Assembly: GCA_002494625.1 (NCBI GenBank)
Contig: DACH01000016.1
Span: forward strand, 109,257-133,256
Length of the DNA stretch: 24,000 bases
DNA from: Archaeoglobus sp. UBA234
Lineage (GTDB): Archaea; Halobacteriota; Archaeoglobi; Archaeoglobales; Archaeoglobaceae
Direction: 5' to 3'
Shown: piece after piece, positions 2,887 through 24,000 of the stretch
Position numbering within the stretch: position 1 is the first letter of the stretch
How the letters are laid out: each line of letters begins with the position of its first letter
Notes under the pieces: generated by a model
What the model was told of the DNA's origin: nothing
The model's input: the letters and a program-made list of their open reading frames with translations, nothing else
Database searches by the model: none
Made by a program: the position numbers and the translations under genes

Positions 2887-3468
2887 ATGCCAAAGAGATT
2901 TATTTCAAGGTTTTTTTTGAGTCTTGGGATTGTTTTCTTCGTAGGCATACTGATAAGCGATAGTTTCAGAAAGGAACTTGCAAACCTCGTAGCACCTTTT
3001 CTCGATCCACTGGCTGAAGCCCTTCCGGTATATCAGGTCATTCTTGTACTGGCAATAATAACTGCATCCTATTCAACTCTGATTCAGAAATTTACCGTGG
3101 ATACAAAGAAACTCAAGGAGATACAGAAAAAGGTCATGGAATTCCAGAAAGAATACATGGAGGCTACAAAACAGGACAACAAATTTAAGCTGAAACAAAT
3201 GGAAGAGCAGAAAGCGGAGATCCAGCAGATGCAGAGTGAAATGATGGGGATGCAGTTTAAGCCGATGTTTTATACAATGGTAGTCACTCTCCCCATTTTT
3301 ATGTGGCTGTACGCACTAACAAAAAGTGAGAATATGGTAATTACCGTTCCATTTTCAGGGCAGATCCACATTGCAGATCCTGTTCTCTTCTTTCCCTGGT
3401 GGATCGTCTGGTATTTACTTTGTTCAATCGCTGTTGGGCAAATCATTCGAAAACTTGCCAAAATGTAG
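2887..3468 (+). CDS. DUF106-family membrane protein (archaeal YidC/Oxa1/EMC3-like insertase, MJ0480 type)
   Basis: The 193-aa protein has TM1, then a long Lys/Glu/Gln/Met-rich coiled-coil hairpin (KKLKEIQKKVMEFQKEYMEATKQDNKFKLKQMEEQKAEIQQMQSEMMGMQFKP), then two more TM segments. Its position next to secY and cmk is typical of the DUF106 gene in archaea. Confidence 0.72.
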   Translation: MPKRFISRFFLSLGIVFFVGILISDSFRKELANLVAPFLDPLAEALPVYQVILVLAIITASYSTLIQKFTVDTKKLKEIQKKVMEFQKEYMEATKQDNKFKLKQMEEQKAEIQQMQSEMMGMQFKPMFYTMVVTLPIFMWLYALTKSENMVITVPFSGQIHIADPVLFFPWWIVWYLLCSIAVGQIIRKLAKM

Positions 3469-8079: not shown

Positions 8080-8379
8080 ATGCTCAATGACAGGGATGTT
8101 CTCGAGTTCGTTCTTGCAGGTTATGAGAAACTCAGGGATGTTGCCCGTGAGGACGGAATGGAGGTAGATGAACTCGTTCTGTTTCTAAAAAATGAGCTTG
8201 ACCTTCACGAAAACTCATGTTTCAGAGTCAAAGTTAGAGGAATTATCGAAGATGGTGTAAAAGAATCGGATTCCGGTTTTATCCCTGTTAATACCAGTCA
8301 GAGCAGAAAAAGGTTAATGAATATCGTAAAATCAGGATTTGCATTGATAACCCACAATGAAAAAATTAAAGTAGTTTGA
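8080..8379 (+). CDS. Hypothetical small protein (99 aa) between the afpA-like gene and a receiver gene
   Basis: The ORF has normal amino-acid composition. It is co-directional with its neighbours, with gaps of 63 nt upstream and 18 nt downstream. I recognise no family. Confidence 0.5.
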   Translation: MLNDRDVLEFVLAGYEKLRDVAREDGMEVDELVLFLKNELDLHENSCFRVKVRGIIEDGVKESDSGFIPVNTSQSRKRLMNIVKSGFALITHNEKIKVV

Positions 8380-8397
8380 ATGAGTTGGTGATTCTGC

Positions 8398-8757
8398 ATG
8401 AAACCGAAGATTCTCTTGGTTGATGATGATGAGCTCCTCAGAGGTATTCTTGCGTCAATGCTCTCTGACTATCAGGTGATAGAAGCAGATAATGGCAGGA
8501 CGGCAGTGGAGCTTTTCAAAAAGCACAAACCTGATTTGATTCTAATGGATGTAATGATGCCGGTTATGGATGGAGTTGAGGCAACAAAACATATCCTCAA
8601 GGAAGATCCAAAAGCAAAGATTCTGGCAATAACAGCCTTTGCACCAATAAGAGGAAATGAAATGCTTGAAGCTGGAGCAATGGATATTATCACGAAACCA
8701 ATCACAAGGAAAAGGCTAAATGAAATAGTTAAAGAGTATCTTGCGATTAAAAGATAA
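8398..8757 (+). CDS. Stand-alone CheY-like response-regulator receiver, paralogue 2
   Basis: The 119-aa protein has LVDDDE, LILMDVMMPVMDG, AITAF and ITKPIT. It is closely related to 21161-21514, even at the DNA level (ATGCCGGTtATGGATGGAgTTgAGGCaACAAAA vs ATGCCGGTgATGGATGGAaTTcAGGCtACAAAA). Confidence 0.87.
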   Translation: MKPKILLVDDDELLRGILASMLSDYQVIEADNGRTAVELFKKHKPDLILMDVMMPVMDGVEATKHILKEDPKAKILAITAFAPIRGNEMLEAGAMDIITKPITRKRLNEIVKEYLAIKR

Positions 8758-10908: not shown

Positions 10909-11622
10909 CTATATTTTTATAAGGGAGTCCATTTTTATACCTTTCTCTGTGATCTCGTAATTTTTTATGGTCTTGGGGACGAGAGCTTTTTTCAATTTTA
11001 GTATTTTAAACCTTCTCTGGATCTCGTTTTCGATCTCCTTTGTGGAGAGCTCAAAGACTCCTGTAGAGTGGTGTTTTATCTTGTTCTCTATGCTTTGCTC
11101 GTAGATTCCCTTTGTCATTAAGTTGAGAAAGACAGAATTTGTTTTCTTTGAGTATTTTGAAAGCTTTATCAGGAAATCTGAAACATCTTGAAGCTCGTAG
11201 TTTTCAATGAAATAGATAAGGTTGTTTATAATTATTCTGTCGAACATCTCGTTCTCGAGTATAATTTGTAAACTGCTGATTGGATCGTATATCACTCTCC
11301 TGATAAAACTCTTTAAATCTTCTTTGAATTCGATCCCCTCGCTTATTTGAGGGGAAAATAAACTCAGAATTGTAAGGTTATCAAACAGGTTTTTTGGATT
11401 TCTGAAATAAAGGTTGAAGTACTCTTTAGTCTCTTCGATTGTATCGTCAGTGGAGATGTAAAGAACATTCTCTCTGTTTTTTACACCTTCAAGTGCAAAA
11501 TGGAAAGTGAATATGTCCCCTCCACTTCCAGGCTCTTCAAATATCGTAATAATACTTCCACCCGGAATGCCACCATTCAAGTGGTCGTCAAGAGCATTTA
11601 TTCCTGTTCTATATATCCTCAT
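10909..11622 (-). CDS. KaiC/RadA-like RecA-superfamily protein with degenerate Walker A and B (predicted pseudo-ATPase)
   Basis: The N-terminus RTGINALDDHLNGGIPGGSIITIFEEPGSGGDIF matches the KaiC/ArlH pattern (TGI..LD..L.GGIP.GS...I.G.PG.GKT), but GKT is replaced by GGD (nt 11515-11532). The Walker B equivalent reads RIIINNL instead of hhhIDSL. The gene is divergent from arlB. Confidence 0.62.
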   Translation of the reverse strand: MRIYRTGINALDDHLNGGIPGGSIITIFEEPGSGGDIFTFHFALEGVKNRENVLYISTDDTIEETKEYFNLYFRNPKNLFDNLTILSLFSPQISEGIEFKEDLKSFIRRVIYDPISSLQIILENEMFDRIIINNLIYFIENYELQDVSDFLIKLSKYSKKTNSVFLNLMTKGIYEQSIENKIKHHSTGVFELSTKEIENEIQRRFKILKLKKALVPKTIKNYEITEKGIKMDSLIKI

Positions 11623-11758
11623 TTAAGTTTAATGAAATATTTGAGTATTTAACCTTACTGGATGGTGAATATTTGGAGTCATATGCTTTCAAAAATGAAA
11701 TTCTGTTGGAGAAATCACTTAATTGAAATTTTGGTAGTATAATTTTAACTTAGAAAAA

Positions 11759-11768
11759 GGTAATTACC
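11759..11768. promoter_or_regulatory. Perfect 10-bp palindrome GGTAATTACC upstream of the archaellin TATA box
   Basis: Seen directly. It lies 14 nt upstream of the TTTTATATA element and shares the GTAATTA/TAATTAC core with the inverted repeats at 21615 and 22073. Confidence 0.35.
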
Positions 11769-11782
11769 AAACATAAAAAAAA

Positions 11783-11791
11783 TTTTATATA
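11783..11791 (+). promoter_or_regulatory. Candidate TATA box (TTTTATATA, preceded by an A-run BRE-like element) for the archaellum operon
   Basis: The sequence is acataaaaaaaaTTTTATATActtataatg, about 84 nt upstream of the arlB ATG. It is the best TATA-like element in the 252-nt divergent intergenic region. Confidence 0.45.
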
Positions 11792-11874
11792 CTTATAATG
11801 TATCAAATTAACTGTTGACCATAGTGGTGGGAGTGAAGATATGAAAAATAGGTGTAAAGTCGCGAGGTGAAAGA

Positions 11875-12462
11875 ATGTGGAAAAAACTGAAAAGGGATGA
11901 AAGGGCATTCACGGGACTGGAAGCAGCAATCGTTCTGATAGCCTTCGTGGTTGTTGCAGCGGTTTTCAGTTACGTCATGTTAGGAGCAGGTTTCTTCACC
12001 ACACAGAAGAGCCAGGAAGTTGTGCATACTGGAGTTCAGCAGGCAAGCAGCAGTATTGAACTTTCTGGTGATATAATCGGTGAAGGTAACACAACAGCAA
12101 ATAGGTTAGAGAAAGTAAGAGTGTTCATTCAGCTAACAGCAGGTGGAAATCCTGTAGATATCAGTAAGACTCTGATTACAGTGACAACAGACGATGCTCA
12201 CCATTCATTCACACTGGGCAGTGTGGCAGATTCAAGTTACTTCAAAGTAGCGAATAAGTATGGTGGCGACTCAGACAATCTGCTGGAAAAATTCGAGAAA
12301 TTTGAGCTTGAAATAAATGTCACAAAGGAGGCTTTGGGTTCAAGTACAGATATTACAGCAAATGAGAAATTCCAGGTTGAAATCAAACCACCTCAGGGTG
12401 CCTCTGTTACAGTGGTTAGGACAGTACCTGCAAGTATCGACTCTGTAATGACCCTATACTGA
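11875..12462 (+). CDS. arlB: Archaellin (archaeal flagellin) with class III (type IV pilin-like) signal peptide
   Basis: MWKKLKRDERA|FTGLEAAIVLIAFVVVAAVFSYVMLGAGFFTTQKSQEVVHTGVQQASSSIELSG has a charged leader, a predicted peptidase site after Arg-Ala, Glu at +5, and the conserved archaellin hydrophobic N-domain. SD GAGGTGA lies upstream. It is the first gene of the arl cluster. Confidence 0.88.
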   Translation: MWKKLKRDERAFTGLEAAIVLIAFVVVAAVFSYVMLGAGFFTTQKSQEVVHTGVQQASSSIELSGDIIGEGNTTANRLEKVRVFIQLTAGGNPVDISKTLITVTTDDAHHSFTLGSVADSSYFKVANKYGGDSDNLLEKFEKFELEINVTKEALGSSTDITANEKFQVEIKPPQGASVTVVRTVPASIDSVMTLY

Positions 12463-12465
12463 AGA

Positions 12466-12495
12466 TTTTAAAAATTTTTTAATTTTATTTTTTTT
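12466..12495 (+). terminator. Oligo-T tracts (T6, T4, T8) directly after the archaellin gene; candidate partial terminator/attenuator
   Basis: The sequence ttttaaaaaTTTTTTaaTTTTaTTTTTTTT lies between the arlB stop (12462) and the SD GGAGG (12496-12500) of the next gene. Confidence 0.5.
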
Positions 12496-12507
12496 GGAGG
12501 TAAAAAT

Positions 12508-13251
12508 ATGGAGAACCTCGATCAGTCGATGATAGATGACATAATAGCAAGTGCTGATGAAGACTCACCAGAATCAAGAATAGATAGGCTTGAGGAGGAG
12601 ATCACCGAGATAAAAGGCTCCATAAAAAAACTGCTCCTCGATATTAGGGAGACTATAAACATTATTGAGAACCCCTTCCAGAGTATTCAGAGCATTGCAG
12701 AAAGTGTTGGCAGCGGTAAAGTTCAGGCTCTGCAGATAATTCCACCCGAATATTCTGAGCCAGAAAAAAATAATGAAGATATGGAAAAAGAAAGTGAACT
12801 CGATGAAGGGAAGGAAGAAAATATGCTGGAAGATAAACTTAATGTTCCAGAATTCACTCCGGAATTTAATAATCAGATGTGTCAGAGTAATTATGGTGTT
12901 AATAAGGCTGATAGATTCCAGGATCAGCCATTACAAGAACTGAAAAAGCTTGTAATTCCAATAAAACAGATTGACCCTTTGGCTTTATACAGTATCATAG
13001 AGTGGAGCAATGAAATGCTTGGTAGATACACCAAAGAAACCTTGGTTGAGCTTGTTGAAGTTTTTGAAATGGTTGGTTATATCTCCGGTGAGATTAAGGA
13101 AGTAGTTGTAAAGATAATTGAACTCCTGGATAGGGATAATAACCTTGATAATGCAATTGTAGATCTGTATAAGCTCTATAACATTTTAAATCCAGAGGAT
13201 GTATCCCTGGATTCTAAGGTTTTGAAACTTCTGCTTAATAATGGCAGATAG
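12508..13251 (+). CDS. arlCDE: Archaellum accessory protein of the ArlC/D/E (FlaC/D/E) type
   Basis: It has an N-terminal coiled coil (RIDRLEEEITEIKGSIKKLLLDIRETI), an acidic linker, and a C-terminal FlaD/E-like domain (LYSIIEWSNEMLGRYTKETLVELVEVFEMVGYISGEIKEVVVKIIELL). It lies right after arlB. Confidence 0.72.
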   Translation: MENLDQSMIDDIIASADEDSPESRIDRLEEEITEIKGSIKKLLLDIRETINIIENPFQSIQSIAESVGSGKVQALQIIPPEYSEPEKNNEDMEKESELDEGKEENMLEDKLNVPEFTPEFNNQMCQSNYGVNKADRFQDQPLQELKKLVIPIKQIDPLALYSIIEWSNEMLGRYTKETLVELVEVFEMVGYISGEIKEVVVKIIELLDRDNNLDNAIVDLYKLYNILNPEDVSLDSKVLKLLLNNGR

Positions 13252-13259
13252 GTGTCATT

Positions 13260-13736
13260 ATGGCGAGGGAGGTGATAACTACATCATTGCTCGTAATTGC
13301 AAGTGTTGTGGCGGTTGCAGCCTTGATTAATGCGGTATTTCCCTCTATCCATAAGATGACAAGCTCGTTTAACTCTTTAGCCAATAATATGGAAGAAAAA
13401 ATTGAGACCGATATGGATATAATATTCATAACCACAAACGGTAATTTCGTTTATTTCTGGGTAAAAAATACAGGCTCTTCCAAGGTTTCGCTGAGTTACT
13501 TCAACAATAGTGATGTCTTTATTTATTCGTCTTCAAACTACTGGCGTGCAGTTTTTGAAGGAACATCCAATCCAAGATGGAACTATACAGTTGAAAATGG
13601 GGATGGAGATGGATACTGGGACTCCGGAGAAACTATAAAGGTTACAGTTGAGTTTGATTCACTGCCAAGCGGTGAGTATAAGGTAACTCTCGTTTTGTAC
13701 AATGGCCTCTCTGTCTCGGATATTTTCTCGGTATAG
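13260..13736 (+). CDS. arlG: Archaellum protein ArlG (FlaG)-like
   Basis: The 158-aa protein has an N-terminal hydrophobic helix (MAREVITTSLLVIASVVAVAALINAVF) followed by a beta-rich soluble domain (FVYFWVKNTGSSKV). The G versus F assignment rests on N-terminus style (MA..E.I) and the G-F-H order known from Archaeoglobus and crenarchaea. Confidence 0.6.
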   Translation: MAREVITTSLLVIASVVAVAALINAVFPSIHKMTSSFNSLANNMEEKIETDMDIIFITTNGNFVYFWVKNTGSSKVSLSYFNNSDVFIYSSSNYWRAVFEGTSNPRWNYTVENGDGDGYWDSGETIKVTVEFDSLPSGEYKVTLVLYNGLSVSDIFSV

Positions 13737-13745
13737 GGTGATGGT

Positions 13746-14225
13746 ATGGGGATGGACACGGTGATAGTCTCAGTAGTTTCCATAGCTCTCATCCTTGTAG
13801 TTGCATACTCATTTGCAATGGAGACGAATAATCTGATAACATCAGCTCACAGTGGGTTCTCAAATCTCCAAAAATTAACTCTGAAGAAGATTAAAACCAA
13901 TATTGAGATTCAAAACATTTTGTGGAATGTAAGTGGTAATAACTACCTGAGGTTTAGTGTTGCAAATACAGGAGATACCAAACTGAGCAATTTTGAGCTG
14001 TGGGATGTGGTTGTTGTCAGAAACAACTCCACTCTGTACTTGAGTTATGGCTCAGACTGGATTGTTGATAGTATTTCCAACGATTCAATAAACCCGAATA
14101 TACTTGATCCCTTTGAAAGTGCACAGATTGAAGTTCGTATTCCTTTTGAAAGTGGTGAGAGTGTCATAATAAGGGTTTCCACTCCTAACGGGGTGGTTGC
14201 AACCCAGAGATACAATGTGGGGTGA
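13746..14225 (+). CDS. arlF: Archaellum protein ArlF (FlaF)-like
   Basis: The 159-aa protein has the N-terminal helix MGMDTVIVSVVSIALILVVAY and then a beta-sandwich-like domain (LRFSVANTGDTKLSNFELWDVVV). It directly precedes arlH, overlapping it by 4 nt if arlH starts at GTG 14222. Confidence 0.6.
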   Translation: MGMDTVIVSVVSIALILVVAYSFAMETNNLITSAHSGFSNLQKLTLKKIKTNIEIQNILWNVSGNNYLRFSVANTGDTKLSNFELWDVVVVRNNSTLYLSYGSDWIVDSISNDSINPNILDPFESAQIEVRIPFESGESVIIRVSTPNGVVATQRYNVG

Positions 14226-14230
14226 TATTA

Positions 14231-14956
14231 ATGATCGATAATATAGAGGAGGAAATTAAAAAATCGATACTTTCAAGTGGAAACAGCGAAATTGATAAAA
14301 AACTTGGAGAAGGAATTCCCTTAGGCTCACTGACTCTTATAGAAGGTGAGAATGACACTGGTAAAAGTGTACTCTGTCAGCAATTCATTTACGGAGGATT
14401 GAGGCAAGGACATAAGATTGCATATTATTCCACAGAGAACACAATCAAAAGTCTATTAATGCAGATGGAAAGTCTGAGCCTTGATGTTTCAGAGTTCTAT
14501 GCGTGGGGATATTTTCGAGTGTTTCCGGTGCATCTTGAGGGGGTTGACTGGACACCTAAGCAGATGAAAAGTATTCTCACGCTCGTTTCCGACCATATAA
14601 AGAGTATCAGAGAGAATGTGATAATGATTGATTCTCTGACAATGTTTACAACATATTCAGAGGAAGATGATATACTCGAATTTCTCACTAGGTTGAAGAA
14701 CCTGTGTGATAGGGGGAAGACCATTATGATAACACTGCATCAGCATGCGTTTAAAGAAGATACTCTTGTTAGGATAAGATCTGCCTGTGATTGTCATTTG
14801 TTTTTGAAAAAAGAACAGGTTGGAGACCGGTATGTGAGTGTGCTGGAGGTATCTAAAATAAGAGGAGCCAAGAAAACAACGGGGAATATAGTGAGCTTTG
14901 AAGTCCAGCCTGGTTTTGGGTTAAAGATAATCCCGATATCTCAGGCTCAGACCTAA
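14231..14956 (+). CDS. arlH: ArlH (FlaH), KaiC-like ATP-binding archaellum motor component
   Basis: It has EIDKKLGEGIPLGSLTLIEGENDTGKSVLCQQF (intact Walker A GENDTGKS), NVIMIDSLT (Walker B) and VLEVSKIRGA. The start is ATG 14231 (SD GGTGA 5 nt upstream) or GTG 14222. Confidence 0.88.
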   Translation: MIDNIEEEIKKSILSSGNSEIDKKLGEGIPLGSLTLIEGENDTGKSVLCQQFIYGGLRQGHKIAYYSTENTIKSLLMQMESLSLDVSEFYAWGYFRVFPVHLEGVDWTPKQMKSILTLVSDHIKSIRENVIMIDSLTMFTTYSEEDDILEFLTRLKNLCDRGKTIMITLHQHAFKEDTLVRIRSACDCHLFLKKEQVGDRYVSVLEVSKIRGAKKTTGNIVSFEVQPGFGLKIIPISQAQT

Positions 14957-14994
14957 AACTTTATATTATACATGATAATGACAATAACGATGAG

Positions 14995-16851
14995 GTGAAT
15001 AAATTGGCAACGGTCGTTGATGAGCTGAACTTAGGAATGGAGCAAAACAGATTTAAAAGTGGGATAGTTGCCAATTTCCCTTTTAGACCCAGAAAGATGG
15101 ATGATCATGATCATTCAAATCTCAAAACATGTAGTATATATAGAATACTTCCAAAGCTGATGAAAAAAGAAGTTGAAAGGAATATGCATTTGCTGGAATA
15201 TCTGCATGTTGTTCCGATGGATAAAATTGGTATTCCAAAGTTTATTCCCAAGCTTGAGAAAAAACATGGTGAAATCGAGAATCCAAATTTGATTTATCAG
15301 GCAAGTGATCAGATATATATTCACATCTATACGGACAAAAACGATGTCAGGAATTTTTACATTCCAATTGAACCCACTCTTTTAACTGGAGTTGATCTGT
15401 TACTTAAAGAGGTAGAAGTTAAGCTTGTAGATTTCCTCACAGAAATCGACTTCGATCCTGAGGATAAAGAGGAGAAGGAAAGAATCCTCAAAGAAGCTCT
15501 GAAAGAAATCTGTGTGATAACCAATGGAAGAAAAGTCGATGATTTTATAGAAAATGAAGAGGGTATTTTAAAACTTTTTATGAGGAATAAAAATAATGGT
15601 AAAAATGGGCATCATATTTATGTCACAAGAGAGCAGTATAAGGCACTGGAATATGCCATCATAAGGGATAAAGTTGGGTTGGGGGTTCTCGAACCATATA
15701 TAAGGGATAAACATATTGAAGATATCACATGCAATGGTTTAGGACCTATATTTATTGAACACAAGGTGTTCAAGGGTCTTAAGAGCATAATTGAATTTAG
15801 AGAGGAAGAAACTTTGAATAAGTTTATTATCAGACTTGCTGAAAGAATTGGGAAGCCGATCACTTATAAAGATCCGATAGTTGATGCAACCCTCCCTGAT
15901 GGCTCGAGAATCAATATCGTTTTTGGCAATGATGTGAGCAAAAACGGTAGTAATTTTACAATCAGAAAGTTCAATGAGACTCCTTTCAGTGTTCTGCAGG
16001 TCATTGAGAGCGGGGCTATGGACTACATGATTGCAGGGTATCTATGGTTGTTGATTTCAGAGGGGATGTCTGGATTTATATGTGGTGAAACTGCGAGTGG
16101 TAAAACCACATCGCTGAATGCAATTACTGCTTTTATATCTCCGGATGCGAAGATAGTCTCAATAGAAGACACTCCCGAACTACAGGTCCCACATAAAAAC
16201 TGGACAAGAGAGGTAACTCGAGGAAGTACGAGAGGTGGATCCTTAGGTGAAGGAAGTGGATCAGATGTAACAATGTTTGATTTGTTAAAGGCAGCTCTAA
16301 GACAGAGACCAAACTATATACTTGTTGGTGAGATTAGAGGTGTTGAAGGTAATATAGCCTTCCAGGCTATGCAAACTGGACATCCAGTTATGTCAACATT
16401 TCATGCTGCAACAGTAGAAAAACTAATTCAAAGGCTAACGGCTGAGCCGATAAGTGTTCCTAAAACCTACATCGATAATCTGAATTTCGTGCTGATTCAG
16501 AGCGCTGTTAGAAGACCTGATGGGCGGTTAGTGAGGAGGGTATTGAGTGTTAATGAGATCGTTGGATATAACCCACAAAAAGGTGGTGTATCCTTCATTG
16601 AGGCTTTTTCCTGGGACCCTGTGACGGATTCCTTTGTTTTTGGTGCATATGGTAGCTCTTATTTGCTTGAGCAGAAAATTGCAACAAGACTTGGAATTCC
16701 AACCAATAAGAAGAAGGTAATCTATGAAGAAGTTGAAAAGAGAGCAAAAATACTTCAAAAACTGCATGAGGAGGGTATTACTAATTTCTACGACTTTTTC
16801 AACACATTAGCCAAGATAAGAAAGAGTGGCATGCTGAAAATAGAATTTTAG
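14995..16851 (+). CDS. arlI: ArlI (FlaI), archaellum assembly/motor ATPase (type II/IV secretion NTPase family)
   Basis: It has Walker A GETASGKTTSLNA, SIEDTPEL, the Walker B region NYILVGEIRGVEG, and the His box GHPVMSTFHA. The start is uncertain (GTG 14995, TTG 15004 or ATG 15037). Confidence 0.93.
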   Translation: MNKLATVVDELNLGMEQNRFKSGIVANFPFRPRKMDDHDHSNLKTCSIYRILPKLMKKEVERNMHLLEYLHVVPMDKIGIPKFIPKLEKKHGEIENPNLIYQASDQIYIHIYTDKNDVRNFYIPIEPTLLTGVDLLLKEVEVKLVDFLTEIDFDPEDKEEKERILKEALKEICVITNGRKVDDFIENEEGILKLFMRNKNNGKNGHHIYVTREQYKALEYAIIRDKVGLGVLEPYIRDKHIEDITCNGLGPIFIEHKVFKGLKSIIEFREEETLNKFIIRLAERIGKPITYKDPIVDATLPDGSRINIVFGNDVSKNGSNFTIRKFNETPFSVLQVIESGAMDYMIAGYLWLLISEGMSGFICGETASGKTTSLNAITAFISPDAKIVSIEDTPELQVPHKNWTREVTRGSTRGGSLGEGSGSDVTMFDLLKAALRQRPNYILVGEIRGVEGNIAFQAMQTGHPVMSTFHAATVEKLIQRLTAEPISVPKTYIDNLNFVLIQSAVRRPDGRLVRRVLSVNEIVGYNPQKGGVSFIEAFSWDPVTDSFVFGAYGSSYLLEQKIATRLGIPTNKKKVIYEEVEKRAKILQKLHEEGITNFYDFFNTLAKIRKSGMLKIEF

Positions 16852-16860
16852 GTGTCAGAC

Positions 16861-18489
16861 ATGGAATTAGCCAACATCAAAAACCTCGCTATGAAATACA
16901 GAAAGGAGAAGAAACTCAAGGAGTCTCCCGGATTATTTGAAAGACTCAGAAAAATTAAAGAAGGCCTTTATTTGGATAATGATCTGCTTTTTATTCTCAC
17001 TTATATGGCGTCAATCTCAACAGCCCAGATTAGTAGAGATAAAATTTTTGAGAAGACCTCTGAGAAGGAAGAATATGCTCCAAGTACTTATTTCAGAAAG
17101 GTTAAAGATCTGGCGCAGAAATGGCATTATGATTATGCAACAGCATGTGAACTCATAGCAAAAAAGATAAAACATGAAAATTTAAAAAAATTGTTCAATC
17201 GGTTCTCAAACGCCATATCTGCTGGTGAACCCGATAGAGAATTTTTGGAAAAGGAATGGAAAGTTTTTAAGACAATAAGAAAAGATGAGTTTGAAAGAAG
17301 CCTTGAGTCCTTGAAGAAGTGGTCAGATGCATATACTGCTCTGATGGTATCAACTTCTTTGATATCAATAATAATCCTTCTTTCGGTTATAATATATAAT
17401 ATCGGGGATCCTGCTCGGACTTTATTCACAGTTGCTGGTCTTGTGTTCGCGATCTCTCTTTTTGGAGTTGGTTTTTTGTTTAAATCTGTTCCCAAGGACA
17501 TCAAGACGCATAACTTGAAAATAAAATCGAGAGAGCAAACAATTGTGTATAAATGGATGCCAGTCAGTTATTTACTTTCAGCAATTTTTGTACTATCAAT
17601 AACCGTTGTACCTGTTTTTGTTAAACCTGACTTATTTGTTTTTAATGATCTGGATTTTAAGGGACTGGGCTTGATTGCAGCGGGTTTAACCATGTTTCCA
17701 GTGGGATGGATTGGGAGAAAAGATGATATAAAAATAAGCAAAAGAGATGAGAGCTATACTGTCTTCATTAGAAGTCTTGGCGCCATAGTTAGTGGAGCAG
17801 GGGTCACAATCGCAGAAGCACTTACAAAAATTGACCAGAAAAATCTTGGAGAACTCAAAGAACTATGCTATCAACTTTACAAAAGATTGTCAATGGGTCT
17901 GGATCATCGTTTGAGCTGGGAGAGGTTCATTGGAGAAAGTGGGAGCTACCTGATTCATAAATTAACTAGTGTTTTTGTAGATGCTGTAGATCTTGGAGGA
18001 GATGCCGATACTATTGGAGAAATCGTTAGTTCATCAAATCTCGAGCTGGTACTCTTGAGAAAGAAGCGGGATTTAATTTCTTCGGGATTTATTAGTCTCG
18101 TTATTCCATTACACGTGGCAATGGTATCACTTCTGATGTTTATCAGCCAGATTCTGACAATTTTTTCTGAGCTAATTACATCGCTTTTCACGGAATATAG
18201 TATATCTGGTGATAAACTTGAGGAAATTCCAGGAGGTATATCTGGGATGAATTTGGGAATTTTTTCAGGCGTTCCGTTGGATGTGCTTGCTCAGTACACA
18301 GTAGTGGTAGTAATTCTTGTAACTATAGCAAATACTCTCGCTGCAAAGATCGTTAAGGGGGGAGCAAATTATATGGCTCTGTATTATGGCTCGATTCTTT
18401 TCACACTGTCTGGAATTATGATGATAGTTATCCCACCGTTAGTTGATATGGCATTTTCATTCCCATCTTTTGTAGAGGGAGGTGCATAA
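16861..18489 (+). CDS. arlJ: ArlJ (FlaJ), polytopic archaellum membrane platform protein (GspF/PilC-like)
   Basis: The roughly 540-aa protein has two cytoplasmic helical domains alternating with clusters of TM helices. It follows arlI immediately. ATG 16861 has TAGGTG 6 nt upstream, and GTG 16852 is an alternative start. Confidence 0.87.
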   Translation: MELANIKNLAMKYRKEKKLKESPGLFERLRKIKEGLYLDNDLLFILTYMASISTAQISRDKIFEKTSEKEEYAPSTYFRKVKDLAQKWHYDYATACELIAKKIKHENLKKLFNRFSNAISAGEPDREFLEKEWKVFKTIRKDEFERSLESLKKWSDAYTALMVSTSLISIIILLSVIIYNIGDPARTLFTVAGLVFAISLFGVGFLFKSVPKDIKTHNLKIKSREQTIVYKWMPVSYLLSAIFVLSITVVPVFVKPDLFVFNDLDFKGLGLIAAGLTMFPVGWIGRKDDIKISKRDESYTVFIRSLGAIVSGAGVTIAEALTKIDQKNLGELKELCYQLYKRLSMGLDHRLSWERFIGESGSYLIHKLTSVFVDAVDLGGDADTIGEIVSSSNLELVLLRKKRDLISSGFISLVIPLHVAMVSLLMFISQILTIFSELITSLFTEYSISGDKLEEIPGGISGMNLGIFSGVPLDVLAQYTVVVVILVTIANTLAAKIVKGGANYMALYYGSILFTLSGIMMIVIPPLVDMAFSFPSFVEGGA

Positions 18490-18490
18490 A

Positions 18491-19360
18491 ATGGATGTGG
18501 CGTTAGTAGTGGGTATCGTCATAGCAGGGGTTACGATTGGAGCTGTGACGATATACGATAGGTTTAAACAGGAAAAAAAGTTGGAATTTAATATATCCAA
18601 AAAAATAGTTCCAAATAAAGCTAAAATAAAGACTGAGTTTTTAAATAGGATTTTTGATAGGTTTGCCAGTTTCAGGATGAAAAGAGAAAGTGGAACTGAA
18701 AAAAAAGATGTGAGTGGATTAAAGGGTAAGTTTGCTCGATTTGGTACACTGTTCGGGAGATCAAAGAGTTTTAAAGGCTTTAGCTTATTTTCACCATTTG
18801 GATTCTTTAAATCAAGGCAAGAAAAGAAATTAAAAGAGATTGATGAGAAACTTGAAAAAGTTGTCAATGAAAGCCCGAGTTACAGGAAAAAAGAAGTTGA
18901 AATAGATGATTCGGAAGTTAAAAAAATACTAGAAGAAAAATTGGACACTTTCAATGTGGATGATAATCTGTTAAGTGAGATGGAAACTGCAGAGAGAGTT
19001 GATGACCTTAAAAGGTACAGTGACGAAATCGAATCTGCAGAAAATTTGAATTCAGATGTTGTTGTTGATACAGATGATTTGGATTTTGGTATTGATATTG
19101 CAAACATTGAAGATTCGAACGAAGAACTGGATGACGAATCTGTTGATGATAATCTTGGCTTAGAAATGGAAACAGTTGAAGTAGACTTTGATGACAAAGA
19201 TGAGTTGCTATCGTCTTTGCAAAAGGAAATATCCGTAAAAAAGGAAGAAAAACTAGATTTATTGAGAGATTTAAGAAATGAAAATTTGGATCTAAAAGAA
19301 TTAAAAAGAGAGCTTGAGGAGGTACTGGGAACACTCAGACTATATGCCAAAAGCTCCTGA
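18491..19360 (+). CDS. Unrecognised membrane-anchored protein: one N-terminal TM helix, a basic Phe/Gly-rich segment, and a long acidic coiled-coil-like tail
   Basis: ATG 18491 lies 2 nt after the arlJ stop, with GGAGGTG 8 nt upstream (GTG 18482 is an alternative start). The product starts MDVALVVGIVIAGVTIGAVTIY, then includes FARFGTLFGRSKSFKGFSLFSPFGFFKSRQ, followed by an Asp/Glu-rich region. I recognise no family. Confidence 0.6.
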   Translation: MDVALVVGIVIAGVTIGAVTIYDRFKQEKKLEFNISKKIVPNKAKIKTEFLNRIFDRFASFRMKRESGTEKKDVSGLKGKFARFGTLFGRSKSFKGFSLFSPFGFFKSRQEKKLKEIDEKLEKVVNESPSYRKKEVEIDDSEVKKILEEKLDTFNVDDNLLSEMETAERVDDLKRYSDEIESAENLNSDVVVDTDDLDFGIDIANIEDSNEELDDESVDDNLGLEMETVEVDFDDKDELLSSLQKEISVKKEEKLDLLRDLRNENLDLKELKRELEEVLGTLRLYAKSS

Positions 19361-19372
19361 AAGGGGTAACAT

Positions 19373-21142
19373 ATGGTTGAAAAAGAGAGTGTTGATAAAT
19401 TAGCAGTTGTAAAATGGTTTTTTCTGATCTTTACATTAATTTCAATTTTAGTTTTTGAATTATCAGCTGGATTATATTATTTAAAATGGAATGAAGAAAA
19501 GAGTATCTTAGAAACATCAGAAAGAGAAAGAGTCGAAAACGCGAAAGAGTATATTTCCAGTAGTCTATCATCATCATCTATCGATTTATTTGTTCTTTCT
19601 GAAAATAATGTATTTAAAGAAATTAAGAATAATGATGTGTTGAGAAATGATTTGATTTTTAGAATTTATATGTTAATCAAACTGAACGAAGAGTATGAGA
19701 GAATTGTTCTATTTAATGAAACTGGAGGGCAGATTTTGAGCATAACTGATGGAGGTTGGCATTCAAAGGAAGATTTGCGGGACAGAAAGTATCTCATTGA
19801 ACCGATGATTAAATCCCTCATTGACGAAGCTTTAAAACAGGAAGGAACGAATATGCTTTTTATTCCGGCTGATGAAAACGATGGACATCATGTCATATGG
19901 TTTGCAACCTCTGTAGCAGATTCGGATAACAGAAATGTTATAGCTCTTGAATATTCTGTTGACGAACTGATTTCCAGCCTTGCAAAAAGATTTGGTAGCG
20001 ACGATAGACGGTTCATTTTTTTAGATTCTAATGGGAGAATACACATTATAAAAAATAAAAATCAGGATTGGGACACAGTTGATGATGGTAAGATCATGTA
20101 TTATCTCTCTGAGGGGTGGAATATCATAGAAACCAAAGAAACAGGTCAGTTCTATATAGAAGATGGTCTGGTTACATTTACGACGATCTATCCACTCCAC
20201 TCTGCAAGTAGATACCTGAAAAATCTTGAATTCCCGAATAATAGTTATTTGATCTCTCAGAATAACACCAACGATTTAAGCTGGAAATTGGTCAGTGTCA
20301 TACCTAAGGAAAAGATAGACTCAATACGAAATAGTATCCTTATGGACTTTGTACTTTTTGATGCAATCATCCTTGGAGTTACAGGTTCACTCTCTTTGCC
20401 TCTTTCTTATTTTATAGAAAGGCGAAAGAAAGCCCAGAAAGAAATAGAAATGTATGCGGCGAGACTTGAAGAGAAAAACAAGATGCTTACACTTTTTCTT
20501 GATATAATACGACACGACTTAAAAAACCCTATCAGCGTTGCGTATGGTTACATCGATCTAATGGATTCTGAAAGTACCAGTGATGATGACAAAACCATGT
20601 TCGAAAAAATTAGAAAACAACTAAAAAAGGCGATAGAAATAATGGATAATGCGAAAAAACTCTCTAAGGTAGAAAATATAAAAGAACTTGAGAAAAAAGA
20701 AATAGATCTCAGGCTGTTAATTGATGAATTAATCACCAATTTTAAACTGAACTCAGAAGAACCTTCAATTAAAATTGAGAATAACATAGAGAGGAATGTG
20801 AAGATTATGGCGAATGACCTAATTGAGGATGTTTTTGCAAATCTGATATCAAATGCCATTAAGTATGCTGGTGGGGACAAAACAATTAGGATTGATTGTA
20901 TCGAAACAGATGAGTATATCAGAGTAAGGGTAATAGATTACGGTCCTGGCGTGGACGATGAGAGTAAAGAAGTAATTTTTGATAGATTCGAGAGGGGAGG
21001 TTTAACAGATATAACAGGGACCGGACTCGGTCTTGCGATTTCTAAGAAAATAGTTGAGCTTCATTCTGGGAAGATTTGGGTTGAAGACAACCCAGAAGGT
21101 GGAGCAATTTTTGTGGTAGAATTACCCAAAAGAACAGTATAG
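19373..21142 (+). CDS. Sensor histidine kinase (TM - ~280-aa extracytoplasmic domain - TM - HisKA - HATPase_c)
   Basis: TM1 spans about residues 11-37 and TM2 about 321-347. The H-box is FLDIIRHDLKNPISV (His381, nt 20513-20515), the N-box is LISNAIKYAGGD, G1 is IDYGPGV and G2 is GTGLGLAISKKIVELHSGKIWVE. The periplasmic domain has the size of a double-Cache/PDC sensor, but the fold is unverified. Confidence 0.9.
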   Translation: MVEKESVDKLAVVKWFFLIFTLISILVFELSAGLYYLKWNEEKSILETSERERVENAKEYISSSLSSSSIDLFVLSENNVFKEIKNNDVLRNDLIFRIYMLIKLNEEYERIVLFNETGGQILSITDGGWHSKEDLRDRKYLIEPMIKSLIDEALKQEGTNMLFIPADENDGHHVIWFATSVADSDNRNVIALEYSVDELISSLAKRFGSDDRRFIFLDSNGRIHIIKNKNQDWDTVDDGKIMYYLSEGWNIIETKETGQFYIEDGLVTFTTIYPLHSASRYLKNLEFPNNSYLISQNNTNDLSWKLVSVIPKEKIDSIRNSILMDFVLFDAIILGVTGSLSLPLSYFIERRKKAQKEIEMYAARLEEKNKMLTLFLDIIRHDLKNPISVAYGYIDLMDSESTSDDDKTMFEKIRKQLKKAIEIMDNAKKLSKVENIKELEKKEIDLRLLIDELITNFKLNSEEPSIKIENNIERNVKIMANDLIEDVFANLISNAIKYAGGDKTIRIDCIETDEYIRVRVIDYGPGVDDESKEVIFDRFERGGLTDITGTGLGLAISKKIVELHSGKIWVEDNPEGGAIFVVELPKRTV

Positions 21143-21160
21143 TGGCAGGGGTGAGAGAGG

Positions 21161-21514
21161 ATGTTTGGTAAAGGAAGAGTTCTGATCGTCGAAGATGATT
21201 TTGCTGTTGTGGAAATGCTTAAACTGATGTTGTCGGAGTATCATGTAGAGGTTGCGACAAATGGTTTCGAGGCTGTTGAAAAGTACAAGACATTCGAACC
21301 AGATGTTGTGCTTATGGATATAGTGATGCCGGTGATGGATGGAATTCAGGCTACAAAAGAGATTTTAAGTATTGATAAAAACGCGAAGGTTATTGGAATT
21401 ACTGCCTTCGGAAAGCATAAAGGAGATGAGATGCTTGAGGCTGGAGCCGTTCATATATTGGAGAAACCGATTACAAAAAAGAGCCTTACAAATTCGATTG
21501 ATAGGTATTTATAG
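21161..21514 (+). CDS. Stand-alone CheY-like response-regulator receiver, paralogue 3 (adjacent to the kinase)
   Basis: The 117-aa protein has IVEDDF, VVLMDIVMPVMDG (Asp53), GITAF and LEKPIT. It starts 18 nt downstream of the kinase stop, with SD GGGGTGAGAGAGG. Confidence 0.88.
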   Translation: MFGKGRVLIVEDDFAVVEMLKLMLSEYHVEVATNGFEAVEKYKTFEPDVVLMDIVMPVMDGIQATKEILSIDKNAKVIGITAFGKHKGDEMLEAGAVHILEKPITKKSLTNSIDRYL

Positions 21515-21537
21515 CTATTAAAAAATATTGCACTATC

Positions 21538-21558
21538 TTATTTTAATCAATAATTTTT
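21538..21558 (+). terminator. T-rich, AT-rich region after the receiver gene; candidate end of the long arl transcription unit
   Basis: The sequence is cttaTTTTaatcaataaTTTTTatt. These are the first T-runs after the tight arlJ-to-receiver gene string. Confidence 0.35.
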
Positions 21559-21614
21559 ATTAAGTTATCTCTAATATCTTACTTATGTTATTAGTGTTTT
21601 AGTTTTATTTAATT

Positions 21615-21634
21615 TAATTACAGAATTGTAATTA
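21615..21634. promoter_or_regulatory. Inverted repeat TAATTAC-N6-GTAATTA (extendable to 10-bp arms, 21613-21636) upstream of the wHTH gene; candidate operator
   Basis: The repeat is seen directly as tTTAATTACAgaatTGTAATTAAa. It is followed after exactly 18 nt by the TATA-like TTAAATAT (21653-21660), which lies 30 nt before ATG 21691. Confidence 0.55.
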
Positions 21635-21690
21635 AAAGTAAAATAGTAACAGTTAAATATAATTGTTATTGTTATCATGATGGGGGTGAT

Positions 21691-21972
21691 ATGATGCTCG
21701 AGGTAGAGTATGAGAAACAATCTGAAGCATTGCTGAAAGTGATATCTCGAAGTGGTATGAGTTCAATTCTGAGAAGCCTTGAAAAAAATCCACAAAGGTT
21801 CTCTCAGTTGATGTTTAAGGCAAAATTAAACCCTGGAATCCTCGATCGGCATTTGAAATCTCTGATGGAAATTGGGGCTGTGGAAAAAGATGGAGATACG
21901 TATATACTCACCAATAGGGGTCACAGACTCGTTAAGGCTTTGTACAGTCTGTTTGAAATATATATGGATTGA
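21691..21972 (+). CDS. Small winged-helix (ArsR/MarR-like) transcriptional regulator
   Basis: The 93-aa protein contains SILRSLEKNPQRFSQLMFKAKLNPGILDRHLKSLMEIGAVEKDGDTYILTNRGHRL, which fits helix-turn-helix plus a beta-hairpin wing. SD GGGGGTGAT lies upstream. Confidence 0.7.
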   Translation: MMLEVEYEKQSEALLKVISRSGMSSILRSLEKNPQRFSQLMFKAKLNPGILDRHLKSLMEIGAVEKDGDTYILTNRGHRLVKALYSLFEIYMD

Positions 21973-22072
21973 TTTTTAGAAGACTTTGTGTTATACTCTA
22001 ATTTGGGTGTTTGTGTCTTTCAACATTTTCTTCACTCTCATTTAGCAATCTAGAAGGTAACATCTCAACCTA

Positions 22073-22092
22073 TAATTACATTTTAGTAATTA
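22073..22092. promoter_or_regulatory. Second copy of the inverted repeat TAATTAC-N6-GTAATTA, upstream of the MCP gene; candidate operator
   Basis: The repeat is seen directly as aTAATTACattttaGTAATTAt (8-bp arms, 22072-22093). It is followed after exactly 18 nt by the TATA-like TTATATAC (22111-22118), which lies 37 nt before GTG 22156. Confidence 0.55.
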
Positions 22093-22155
22093 TCTTTTTA
22101 CAAGAAATTCTTATATACTTAAAATTAAATTAATTATTTAGTGAGGTGGTAAAGA

Positions 22156-24000
22156 GTGCTGGAAGTGGAAGATGCCAAAAACGGACCTAAAAAACGTAAT
22201 GTTAAAAGGAAAGACGAAATCATCAAAGAACTAGAGAAGGAAATAGAGACTCTAAGGCATAACCTGGAGGAAAAAAAGATTGAGATTGAGCGTGAGAAAA
22301 AAGCAGCAAAACAGGCTTATAAACTGATTGAATTAATTGCAAAGGAAATCCCCTCTCCAGTATATTTTGTTTTTACCAATAAGGAGGGTAGAATAGCCTA
22401 TGCAAACACTGAAATGGCAAAACTTGCAGGATTTGACGAGGTCAGTGACATAATAGGTAAAAGACCCTCAGAGCTTTTTGCTGTTAAAGGGAAAACTATA
22501 GCTGAAATCGTTGTAGAGACTGCAGAACCAATATTAAATAAAGAAGTCCTAATAGAACTCATAAATGGGAAGAAGATGTTTGCACTCGTTTCCTGCGTTC
22601 CGCTATTCATTGATGGAGAGCTTGCTGGTTCCTTAGGAGTGTTCACGGACATCACAAGAATACATAGTCAGGCGAAGGAAATGGAAGAACTCATCAATAA
22701 GATTCCTGTACCATTACTTGTTCTGGATAAGGATCATAAAATAAGGTACTGGAATAAGGCTGTAGAGGATTTAACTGGGGTAAATGCAGAGGAGATGGTG
22801 GGTACAAACAGACAGTGGGCACCATTCTACGATTCTGAAAGGCCTGTCCTTGCAGACATAGTGATGACAAACCCAGATGATGCGCACGAGAGATATCCTA
22901 ATGTGGAAAAATCAAACCTCGTAAGTGGTGCATTGTTTGCACAGGGTGAGTTCACAATTAACGGGAAGAAGAGATACCTCAGATTCACGGCAGCACCAAT
23001 ATATGGTGAAAATGGCGAGATTACTGGAGCAGTAGAAACTCTCGAGGATATAACTGATTTGAAGGAAAGGGAGATGGAGGTTCAGAGAGTTCTCGATTTC
23101 GTAGAGAAAATCATCAGAGATATGCCCTATCCTGCATATGTTCTGTTCGTAGATAGGGAAGGCAAGATAAGATATGCCAACAATGAACTCGCAAAACTTG
23201 CAGGCTACAACCACTCTAATGAAATAGTTGGGTTGTCACCCCATGATCTTATTAAAACTGATGGTAAGAAAACTGCTGCCGAAATGGTGATGGAATCGGG
23301 TAAATCTATCATGAATCATGAAACAGTACTGAGACTTGCAAAAGTTGAAAAAGATATTCCAGCCCTCATTTCAGCTGTTCCGATTACTGATAGAGATGGT
23401 AACATAATTGGTGTGCTTGATTTGATTACCGATATAACGGAGATCAAGGAGAAAGAGAAAGAGATAGAAGAAATGCTTGCTTACACTAGTAAATGTCTGA
23501 CGATTTTAAGCAACGGAATTAAAGAGCTTCAAGCTGGAAATCTTGATGTTAGACTTGAAAAGTTGAAAGATGATGAGTTTGGTGAAACTTTCGAAGTCTT
23601 CAATGAGTTTGCGGAGAGATTATACAAGATACTTGAAGGACTTGCCAGAGATATGAAGGACGCCACGAGTCAGATTAAAGAAGCAAATGAGGCTGTAAGT
23701 CAAATGAACGCTGGAATGCAACAGATATCCTCAGCATCTCAGCAAATAGCAACTGGTTCTGAAAATCTTTCAAGACTCGCTAACAATTCAGCTTCTGATC
23801 TGAAAGCTGCTGAAGAGATATTCAGAAGTCTCGATGAGTCGGCTTCAGAATCTTCTATTTATGCCTCTGAAGTTGTGGAAGATGCTGAGAAGACCAAAGT
23901 TCTCGGTGAGAACGCACTTCGAAGACTTACAACCATGATTGATGAGATTGAAAAGTCTGCAGAGATCGTTAGCTCTCTCAATGAGGCTGTAAAGAATATT
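22156..24000 (+). CDS. Soluble methyl-accepting chemotaxis protein (coiled coil - PAS - PAS - PAS - HAMP - MA signalling domain); the 3' end lies outside the window
   Basis: It is absent from the ORF track because it has no stop inside the window. The frame is open for 615 codons from GTG 22156, which has an in-frame TAA at 22150-22152 just upstream and SD GAGGTGG 7 nt upstream. The three PAS-like units end in TDIT/EDIT/TDIT motifs. The HAMP-like segment is LQAGNLDVRLEKLKDDEFGETFEVFNEFAERL. The MCP signalling-domain start is AVSQMNAGMQQISSASQQIATGSENLSRLANNS. No TM segment was seen. Confidence 0.85.
   Translation, partial: MLEVEDAKNGPKKRNVKRKDEIIKELEKEIETLRHNLEEKKIEIEREKKAAKQAYKLIELIAKEIPSPVYFVFTNKEGRIAYANTEMAKLAGFDEVSDIIGKRPSELFAVKGKTIAEIVVETAEPILNKEVLIELINGKKMFALVSCVPLFIDGELAGSLGVFTDITRIHSQAKEMEELINKIPVPLLVLDKDHKIRYWNKAVEDLTGVNAEEMVGTNRQWAPFYDSERPVLADIVMTNPDDAHERYPNVEKSNLVSGALFAQGEFTINGKKRYLRFTAAPIYGENGEITGAVETLEDITDLKEREMEVQRVLDFVEKIIRDMPYPAYVLFVDREGKIRYANNELAKLAGYNHSNEIVGLSPHDLIKTDGKKTAAEMVMESGKSIMNHETVLRLAKVEKDIPALISAVPITDRDGNIIGVLDLITDITEIKEKEKEIEEMLAYTSKCLTILSNGIKELQAGNLDVRLEKLKDDEFGETFEVFNEFAERLYKILEGLARDMKDATSQIKEANEAVSQMNAGMQQISSASQQIATGSENLSRLANNSASDLKAAEEIFRSLDESASESSIYASEVVEDAEKTKVLGENALRRLTTMIDEIEKSAEIVSSLNEAVKNI

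Follow-up and report, generated by a model that had tools for sequence, protein, structure and literature searches.

Transcriptional control of archaeal motility is known from few regulators, namely EarA of Methanococcus and Pyrococcus, the Arn network of Sulfolobus and CsmR of Haloferax, and EarA, ArnR and CsmR bind motifs at defined positions beside the TFB recognition element (BRE) and TATA box of motility promoters (PMC10665913, PMC6396743, PMC13286277). EarA (Pfam PF07381, arCOG03422; PMC4858521 and the supplement of PMC10665913) is a stand-alone winged-helix activator of about 110 amino acids (aa), often encoded beside or between the archaellum (arl) and chemotaxis (che) clusters, that recognises short TACA-containing repeats placed at a fixed distance immediately 5' of the BRE in the promoter of the first archaellin gene (PMC10665913, PMC5512572, PMC10117864); earA almost invariably has as its neighbour a gene for an S-adenosylmethionine-dependent methyltransferase that carries a dimerisation domain at its N-terminus (arCOG05058; PMC4858521). 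In Sulfolobus acidocaldarius, ArnR and ArnR1 activate the archaellin promoter via inverted-repeat boxes (TCGAC-N5-GTCGA, at -43 to -84) upstream of the BRE/TATA (PMC6396743). CsmR of Haloferax volcanii (HVO_1209) is a small winged helix-turn-helix (wHTH) protein encoded beside the archaellin genes, with a regulon that includes arl and che promoters according to chromatin immunoprecipitation sequencing (ChIP-seq) and a semi-palindromic motif, TATCA-N4-TGATA, positioned relative to the TATA box (PMC13286277). A survey in 2016 listed untested ArsR-like regulators (arCOG03067, pfam12840) near flaB genes in euryarchaea (PMC4858521). The DNA analysed here is a 24 kb stretch from Archaeoglobus sp. 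UBA234 (the window, to whose positions all coordinates refer), in which a 92-aa wHTH protein is encoded between an arl cluster and a che operon, and in which the inverted repeat TAATTAC-N6-GTAATTA is predicted to be the operator through which this protein couples archaellum and chemotaxis expression. Literature searches found no study of an archaellum regulator in Archaeoglobi and no description of this wHTH family or motif.

As judged from Pfam matches and open reading frames (ORFs), the window carries an archaellum (arl, or fla) cluster, then the wHTH gene, then a chemoreceptor gene (encoding a methyl-accepting chemotaxis protein, MCP) that runs off its end; the wHTH gene sits between the arl cluster with its histidine kinase and response regulator genes (11875-21514) and the MCP-che operon. 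The features on which the argument turns are listed here, the candidate operators with their scores on a position weight matrix (PWM) trained outside the window.

11747-11766, unstranded: third candidate operator, AACTTAG-AAAAAG-GTAATTA, in the arlB promoter, found when three mismatches were allowed; PWM score 17.4
11785-11792, + strand: TTATATAC, the TATA-like octamer of the arlB promoter, separated from the right half-site by exactly 18 nt
11875-12462, + strand: archaellin gene arlB (Pfam Arch_flagellin, E 4e-44), heading a tightly packed run of genes to 21514
21613-21636, unstranded: candidate operator 1, a perfect 10-N4-10 inverted repeat TTTAATTACA-GAAT-TGTAATTAAA with the core TAATTAC-N6-GTAATTA at 21615-21634; PWM score 23.8
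21653-21660, + strand: TTAAATAT, the TATA-like octamer of the wHTH promoter, separated from the core of operator 1 by 18 nt
21694-21972, + strand: winged-helix regulator gene, 92 aa, with an alternative start at 21691 (Pfam HTH_45 and HTH_5; ArsR/SmtB fold)
22073-22092, unstranded: candidate operator 2, TAATTAC-ATTTTA-GTAATTA, in the MCP-che promoter; PWM score 20.1
22111-22118, + strand: TTATATAC, the TATA-like octamer of the MCP-che promoter, separated from operator 2 by 18 nt
22156-24000, + strand: PAS-PAS-PAS-HAMP chemoreceptor (MCP) gene, identified by its Pfam domains, running off the window

A preliminary description of this DNA had reported two exact copies of TAATTAC-N6-GTAATTA, each 18 nt ahead of a TATA-like octamer, and was accurate in these respects: the pattern occurs exactly twice, at 21615-21634 and 22073-22092, with the spacing given, and the distances from octamer to start codon are 30 nt (start at 21691) and 37 nt (start at 22156). 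The same two copies are the only matches with two or fewer mismatches in 24 kb, where 0.14 would be expected from shuffles, a statistic that is post hoc (the pattern having been picked after it was seen) and for which independent loci provide the real test. The inner core of operator 1 reads TTACA-N4-TGTAA. The third site contains the palindrome GGTAATTACC (11759-11768), and the arlB promoter in which it lies has an octamer and an 18-nt phasing identical to those of the MCP promoter. Only three intergenic gaps longer than 60 nt exist between 11.6 and 24 kb, and the site is present in all three. The DNA between and around the two exact dyads is unrelated in the two regions, which have the dyad and TATA box alone in common, and on this ground a duplicated segment or mobile repeat was rejected; a structured RNA was rejected because the intergenic regions gave no Rfam match at E up to 1.

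Among described systems, EarA of Methanococcus maripaludis and Pyrococcus furiosus is functionally closest to this locus. The window gene resembles earA in encoding a small stand-alone winged-helix protein and in lying between arl and che clusters, and the window dyads contain TTACA and stand at a fixed distance upstream of the BRE/TATA. However, the EarA motif consists of 6-9-bp direct repeats (TACATA or A(C/G)(C/G)TACA(T/C)), whereas the window motif is a 20-bp inverted repeat that shares with it only TTAC(A), and unlike those of EarA the window sites extend to the promoters of the regulator gene itself and of the che operon. The PF07381 model did not match the window protein even at E up to 10 and matched 3 of its 42 homologues, the best at E 0.12. 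No methyltransferase gene adjoins the wHTH gene in the window, where its neighbours encode a histidine kinase, a response regulator and the MCP, or in the related loci examined, where the neighbours are radical-SAM, PALP, MFS, UPF0058, helicase or PolD genes. Membership in the EarA family was therefore rejected, on the evidence of the Pfam model and of the gene neighbourhood.

ArnR and ArnR1 are similar to the window protein in possessing a wHTH of the HTH_45 type and in the placing of an inverted repeat upstream of the BRE, and one UniRef cluster of the present family is named 'ArnR1-like winged helix'. The ArnR proteins are membrane-bound one-component systems with a HAMP domain, a sensor and two transmembrane segments, whereas the window protein is a DNA-binding domain only (PMC6396743): its 92 aa are wholly taken up by the wHTH fold, with no HAMP domain, sensor or pair of C-terminal transmembrane helices. 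The ArnR motif also differs in sequence from the window dyad, and ArnR is crenarchaeal, from organisms in which che genes are absent. CsmR resembles the window protein as a small wHTH protein encoded near archaellin genes, with arl and che promoters alike among its targets. The CsmR locus is similar in that a KaiC-like gene is found near the arl genes in both, and the inner core of operator 1 has the same N4 format as the CsmR motif; CsmR, a halobacterial protein that also controls cell shape, is described as Lrp/AsnC-like and not as ArsR/HTH_45, and on this description is set apart from the window protein.

In fold, the window protein belongs with ArsR/SmtB regulators (NolR, SmtB, HlyU, CadC), with which it shares an alpha1-alpha2-alpha3-alphaR, beta hairpin, alpha5 arrangement and a match to HTH_5. 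Such regulators act as homodimers on inverted repeats and commonly control their own genes. The window protein differs from them in having no cysteines and no canonical metal- or redox-sensing residues (Cys/His sites in alpha3 or alpha5), and its sites differ in their archaeal BRE/TATA context, their position upstream of the core promoter and their predicted motility targets. The pfam12840 family of the 2016 survey is not among the top families matched by the present wHTH family.

The window-derived pattern was sought, with two or fewer mismatches, in an independent set of 43 loci from Archaeoglobi genomes (655 kb). Upstream of wHTH homologues (10.1 kb) it matched 21 times, whereas the remaining intergenic DNA (65 kb) gave 1 match (odds ratio 135, p about 1e-17) and coding DNA (580 kb) gave 4; the AT content of the wHTH promoters was 0.68 versus 0.62 for other intergenic DNA. 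The enrichment at wHTH promoters is thus about 135-fold. In an unbiased k-mer search GTAATTAC ranked first among the enriched 8-mers, being present in 13 of 44 promoters where 0.21 would be expected, and TAATTACA ranked next. The same dyad, equally spaced from the TATA box, is shared by about 25 promoters drawn from at least six synteny contexts, and in many promoters three cores follow one another in a 14-bp register, as in TATAATTAT-GTTTTT-GTAATTAC-AGTTTT-GCAATTG. The TATA consensus TTWWATAW being too strict for a test of phasing, TTAWAT was used instead; such hexamers follow the dyad at 17-19 nt in 10 cases and at 31-33 nt in 7 (there counted from the upstream dyad of a tandem, one 14-bp register further away) and seldom occur elsewhere, the spacing is 18 nt in 21 of 28 curated sites, and homologous wHTH promoters carry TTAAATAC, TTATATAC or TTATATGA at the offset occupied in the window by TTAAATAT. 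Despite the relatedness of many of these promoters, the signal spans several unrelated synteny groups of which the wHTH gene is the one common element, and the occurrence of the dyad is clearly non-random.

Additional occurrences of the GTAATTAC palindrome were noted. In one paralogue group (loci L010, L015 and L020) the stretch from TATA box to start codon holds a second palindrome, GTAATTACAATTATTGTAATCAT, an additional occurrence of GTAATTAC; its position is of the repressor type and suggests dual-mode autoregulation in that group. The window wHTH promoter holds a weak relative, AATTGTTATTGTTATCATGA (21661-21680). On the minus strand of the arlB promoter region, the palindrome GTAATTAC (11760-11767) is followed after 18 nt by TATA-like TTATACTA (11742 to 11735), and one core might serve both divergent promoters, of arlB and of the KaiC-like gene. 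A further exact GTAATTAC at 3337-3344, inside the ORF at 2887-3468 and with neither a partner half-site nor a nearby TATA box, is probably due to chance.

Conservation of the dyads in relatives, which the preliminary description had suggested checking, was found at short and long range. In a 90% orthologue (loci L005-L008) neither the half-sites of the two dyads nor the sequence between each dyad and the ribosome-binding site has changed, the one difference being a spacer base of site 2, and the intergenic DNA 5' of the dyads has diverged heavily, including the 100 nt upstream of operator 2. The arlB site is unchanged in locus L052, where the arlB promoter is 98% identical to that of the window and so too near to be informative alone, and it is kept in the distant locus L068. 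Of two further elements in the preliminary description, an imperfect dyad overlapping the TATA box of the wHTH gene is indeed present and was evaluated in near-identical relatives only; a direct repeat TATCTTA exists as described (21534-21540 and 21575-21581), and was rejected as a functional element, being probably due to chance, because its copies read TGTCTTA and TGTTTTG in the 90% orthologue.

The wHTH protein matches HTH_45 (PF14947) with 46.2 bits (cutoff 25.5) and HTH_5/ArsR (PF01022) with 39.9 bits (cutoff 22), and all 42 homologues match HTH_45. Its AlphaFold model (mean predicted confidence, pLDDT, 90) has helices at residues 2-17, 22-31, 36-43 and 47-59, strands at 63-66 and 69-72, and a helix at 74-91. 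The best Foldseek matches in the PDB are the dimeric regulators NolR, SmtB and HlyU (probability 1.0, TM-score 0.7-0.8), followed by Sso10a. The protein has no cysteine and therefore lacks a metal or redox site of the classical kind; it has two histidines, of which the family-invariant one, His53 (A1 numbering), is in the recognition helix, and this helix (RFSQLMF...LNPGILDRHLK) is invariant in 42 sequences. The preliminary description had the gene start at 21691 and encode 93 aa; at this codon, ATG in the window, the 90% orthologue has GTG, a length of 92 aa is also what gene callers report, and the ATG at 21694 is the more likely start. The chromatin protein Sso10a was also considered as a relative: the NCBIfam model NF053610 gave 43.5 bits, below its cutoff of 60, and the sequence match to PDB 1r7j (E 2.7e-6) covers the wHTH part only, the C-terminal helix of the window protein having about 18 residues in place of the long antiparallel coiled-coil helix of Sso10a, so that membership in this family was rejected.

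A profile search of 1.84 billion proteins returned about 270 representatives of the family at E 1e-3 or better; members with a named source are mostly from Archaeoglobi/Archaeoglobaceae, and unnamed metagenomic proteins were returned as well. Cultured carriers of the family include Archaeoglobus profundus and A. neptunius. A homologue search seeded with a distant subfamily (A3) led to ArsR-like proteins of Thermoproteota and not to EarA. Several paralogues are present per Archaeoglobi genome (loci L009-L051), with identical recognition helices and mostly with the same upstream dyad, and the contexts in which they are found, at least six in number, include genes for an Elp3-like radical-SAM/GNAT protein, a PALP enzyme or MFS transporter, UPF0058 with a helicase, and PolD DP2, as well as arl/che clusters. 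Histidine kinase or response regulator genes also flank the motility-linked paralogues in loci L038, L044, L047 and L049.

Motility promoters outside the window carry the site as well. In locus L068, whose archaellin is 52% identical to that of the window, the arlB promoter reads AACTTAG-AAAAAA-GTAATTA, then 18 nt, then ATTATATA, keeping even the degenerate left half of the window arlB site, and a further TAATTAC-N6-GCAATTA lies upstream. Dyads with 17-18-nt phasing are present in the arlB promoter of L049 and in the che operon-leading promoters of L049, L014, L016 and L031. With the PWM, which was trained solely on non-window wHTH promoters, 11 curated non-window promoters leading arl or che operons outscored 181 background promoters (Mann-Whitney p 8.5e-7), and the three window sites (arlB 17.4, MCP 20.1, wHTH 23.8) all scored above the background maximum of 17.1. 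An earA-like small gene beside archaellin genes was also sought in 80 metagenome loci; a member of the present family was found in L068 only, and no conserved cluster of small wHTH proteins emerged from this set.

From the sites, their phasing, conservation and enrichment, and the fold of the protein, TAATTAC-N6-GTAATTA is proposed, at a probability of roughly 0.65, to be the operator of the 92-aa wHTH protein, which would be a dedicated, autoregulated regulator coupling archaellum and chemotaxis expression, most likely by activation. A homodimer of this ArsR/SmtB-type protein would bind the dyad, with TTAC-N6-GTAA as the inner core and half-sites one helical turn (10 bp) apart. The dyad ends 17-18 nt upstream of the TATA box, which leaves about 11 nt to a predicted BRE of 7 nt, and its centre would fall near -58 if transcription starts, as predicted, some 25 nt past the TATA box. 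The arrangement is the same at three promoters, those of the archaellin/arl operon, of the regulator itself and of the MCP-che operon. Activation, with positive autoregulation, may proceed by aiding recruitment of TFB/TBP, as for EarA and ArnR. This mode is favoured because archaeal factors bound upstream of the BRE usually activate (EarA, ArnR, Ptr2), those that repress overlapping the BRE/TATA or the start site (PMC5512572, PMC6396743).

The idea in the preliminary description of a dimeric wHTH operator phased to the TATA box, with autoregulation and control of the chemoreceptor gene, accordingly has comparative support, from about 25 promoters, the invariant recognition helix and the ArsR/SmtB fold, and would extend further than was envisaged. 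Control of the MCP gene is supported; the scope given to the regulon was too narrow in that the arlB promoter site had been missed and the MCP gene leads an operon. In the contigs of the 90% orthologue (L005, L006) the MCP gene is followed by cheW-cheF-cheY-cheB-cheA-cheC-cheD-cheR, and the predicted control by site 2 therefore extends to the whole chemotaxis operon.

Several points weigh against this reading. The left half of the arlB site is degenerate, differing at three of seven positions. When 'motility' promoters were first compared with the rest by a fully automatic procedure, no significant difference appeared (p 0.37); mis-called ORFs and genes not at the head of an operon dominated that category, which was replaced by the hand-curated list, with its risk of curation bias. 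The motility-linked paralogues of Archaeoglobaceae often have no strong dyad in their own promoters, and many of the 44 promoters of the independent set are phylogenetically related, by which the p-values are inflated. The assignment of TATA and BRE elements rests on sequence and positional conservation, and, recognition helices being identical, any of several paralogues might occupy a given site. ArsR/SmtB proteins are classically repressors, and in one paralogue group the extra GTAATTAC between TATA box and start codon is at a repressor-type position.

For the last two reasons the main rival explanation retains the protein and its sites and reverses the sign: a dimer, or tandem dimers in the 14-bp register, bound beside the BRE/TATA would block TFB/TBP or bend the promoter, the regulator would limit its own synthesis, and arl and che genes would be repressed until released by a signal. 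SmtB, CadC, BigR, SqrR and NolR, to which the protein is related by fold, are mostly repressors, and both the tandem arrays of three cores in paralogue promoters and the extra palindromes of L010, L015 and L020 would suit repression, as would the finding that Haloferax genes with promoter-proximal CsmR peaks are upregulated in the deletion strain (PMC13286277). However, all three window sites end 18 nt upstream of the TATA box and overlap neither BRE, TATA box nor start, a position typical of activators (PMC5512572, PMC10665913, PMC6396743), and in a protein with no cysteines and no canonical ArsR metal-sensing site a mechanism of ligand release is not evident, so that repression is considered rather unlikely.

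It is improbable that the dyads are bound by some other factor (a paralogue encoded elsewhere, an unrelated transcription factor, or a protein of the AT-hook or chromatin type) of which the adjacent wHTH gene is merely a target. The identity of recognition helices among the several paralogues of a genome is in keeping with this, and so is the weak resemblance to Sso10a, which falls short of the model threshold (43.5 bits, cutoff 60; 1r7j at E 2.7e-6), but the dyad tracks the wHTH family over at least six unrelated contexts, a pattern that classically marks an autoregulatory operator; there would be no reason for every paralogue to be the target of an unrelated factor, and the sequence-specific conservation of 14 positions together with the phasing disfavours a general chromatin protein. 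That the dyads are chance palindromes of AT-rich DNA, or generic promoter-upstream sequence with no specific function, is highly improbable. The intergenic DNA is AT-rich, the pattern was selected after sighting, and TAATTA-like strings look like TATA boxes; yet only 0.14 matches were expected per window, the motif is enriched 135-fold at wHTH promoters of independent genomes over other intergenic DNA with a similar base composition, it keeps a fixed distance from the TATA box, and the dyads are kept while their flanks diverge.

The mechanism of the favoured reading, an autoregulated dimeric wHTH protein acting on a dyad, is itself conventional. The result is a predicted regulator-operator pair for Archaeoglobi, comprising a 20-bp site, a fixed promoter geometry and a regulon of three promoters that would couple filament synthesis to chemotaxis, and it would add an independent case of different winged-helix families taking the same job just upstream of the archaellin BRE/TATA. 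A wider proposal is possible and on balance doubtful: that the 92-aa ArsR/HTH_45-type protein is an unrecognised master regulator of motility that replaces EarA in Archaeoglobi and relatives, acting through one phased operator to turn on its own gene together with the archaellum operon and the entire che operon, with an activity set by the adjacent histidine kinase and stand-alone receiver through protein-protein contact and not through a DNA-binding response regulator, and that paralogues with the same operator form a cross-regulating network tying motility to the Elp3-like, PolD and helicase loci. As candidate inputs to the wHTH regulator, the histidine kinase and the receiver lacking a DNA-binding domain are a matter of speculation. 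These genes, and a possible terminator, are as follows.

19373-21142, + strand: membrane histidine kinase gene (Pfam HisKA and HATPase_c), a candidate signal input by inference only
21161-21514, + strand: gene for a stand-alone receiver-domain response regulator without a DNA-binding domain, immediately 5' of the wHTH gene (Pfam Response_reg, E 1.6e-24)
21973-21977, + strand: T5 run directly after the wHTH stop codon, seen in the sequence, with a putative terminator role based on known archaeal termination signals

The T5 run is probably an archaeal oligo-T terminator that makes the wHTH gene monocistronic and separates its transcript from the MCP-che promoter. Upstream, the genes from arlB onward are arranged in the order arlB, a 247-aa gene, arlF, arlG, arlH, arlI, arlJ, a 292-aa gene, the histidine kinase and the response regulator, with gaps of less than 50 nt. 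Neither the 247-aa protein (12508-13251) nor the 292-aa protein gave a significant Pfam or NCBIfam match; the 292-aa protein (18482-19360) is rich in Asp and Glu, overlaps the end of arlJ and has only a sub-threshold match to DUF6435, and the 247-aa gene is kept at the same place after arlB in Archaeoglobi arl clusters, with 33-42% identity. A second stand-alone receiver gene (8398-8757) is found upstream of the arl cluster, after a 99-aa ORF (the two occupying the region 8080-8757) for which no family match was obtained. The KaiC-like gene (10909-11622, - strand) is divergent from arlB; in Haloferax the gene of the KaiC-like regulator CirA (cirA) likewise adjoins arl genes (PMC13286277).

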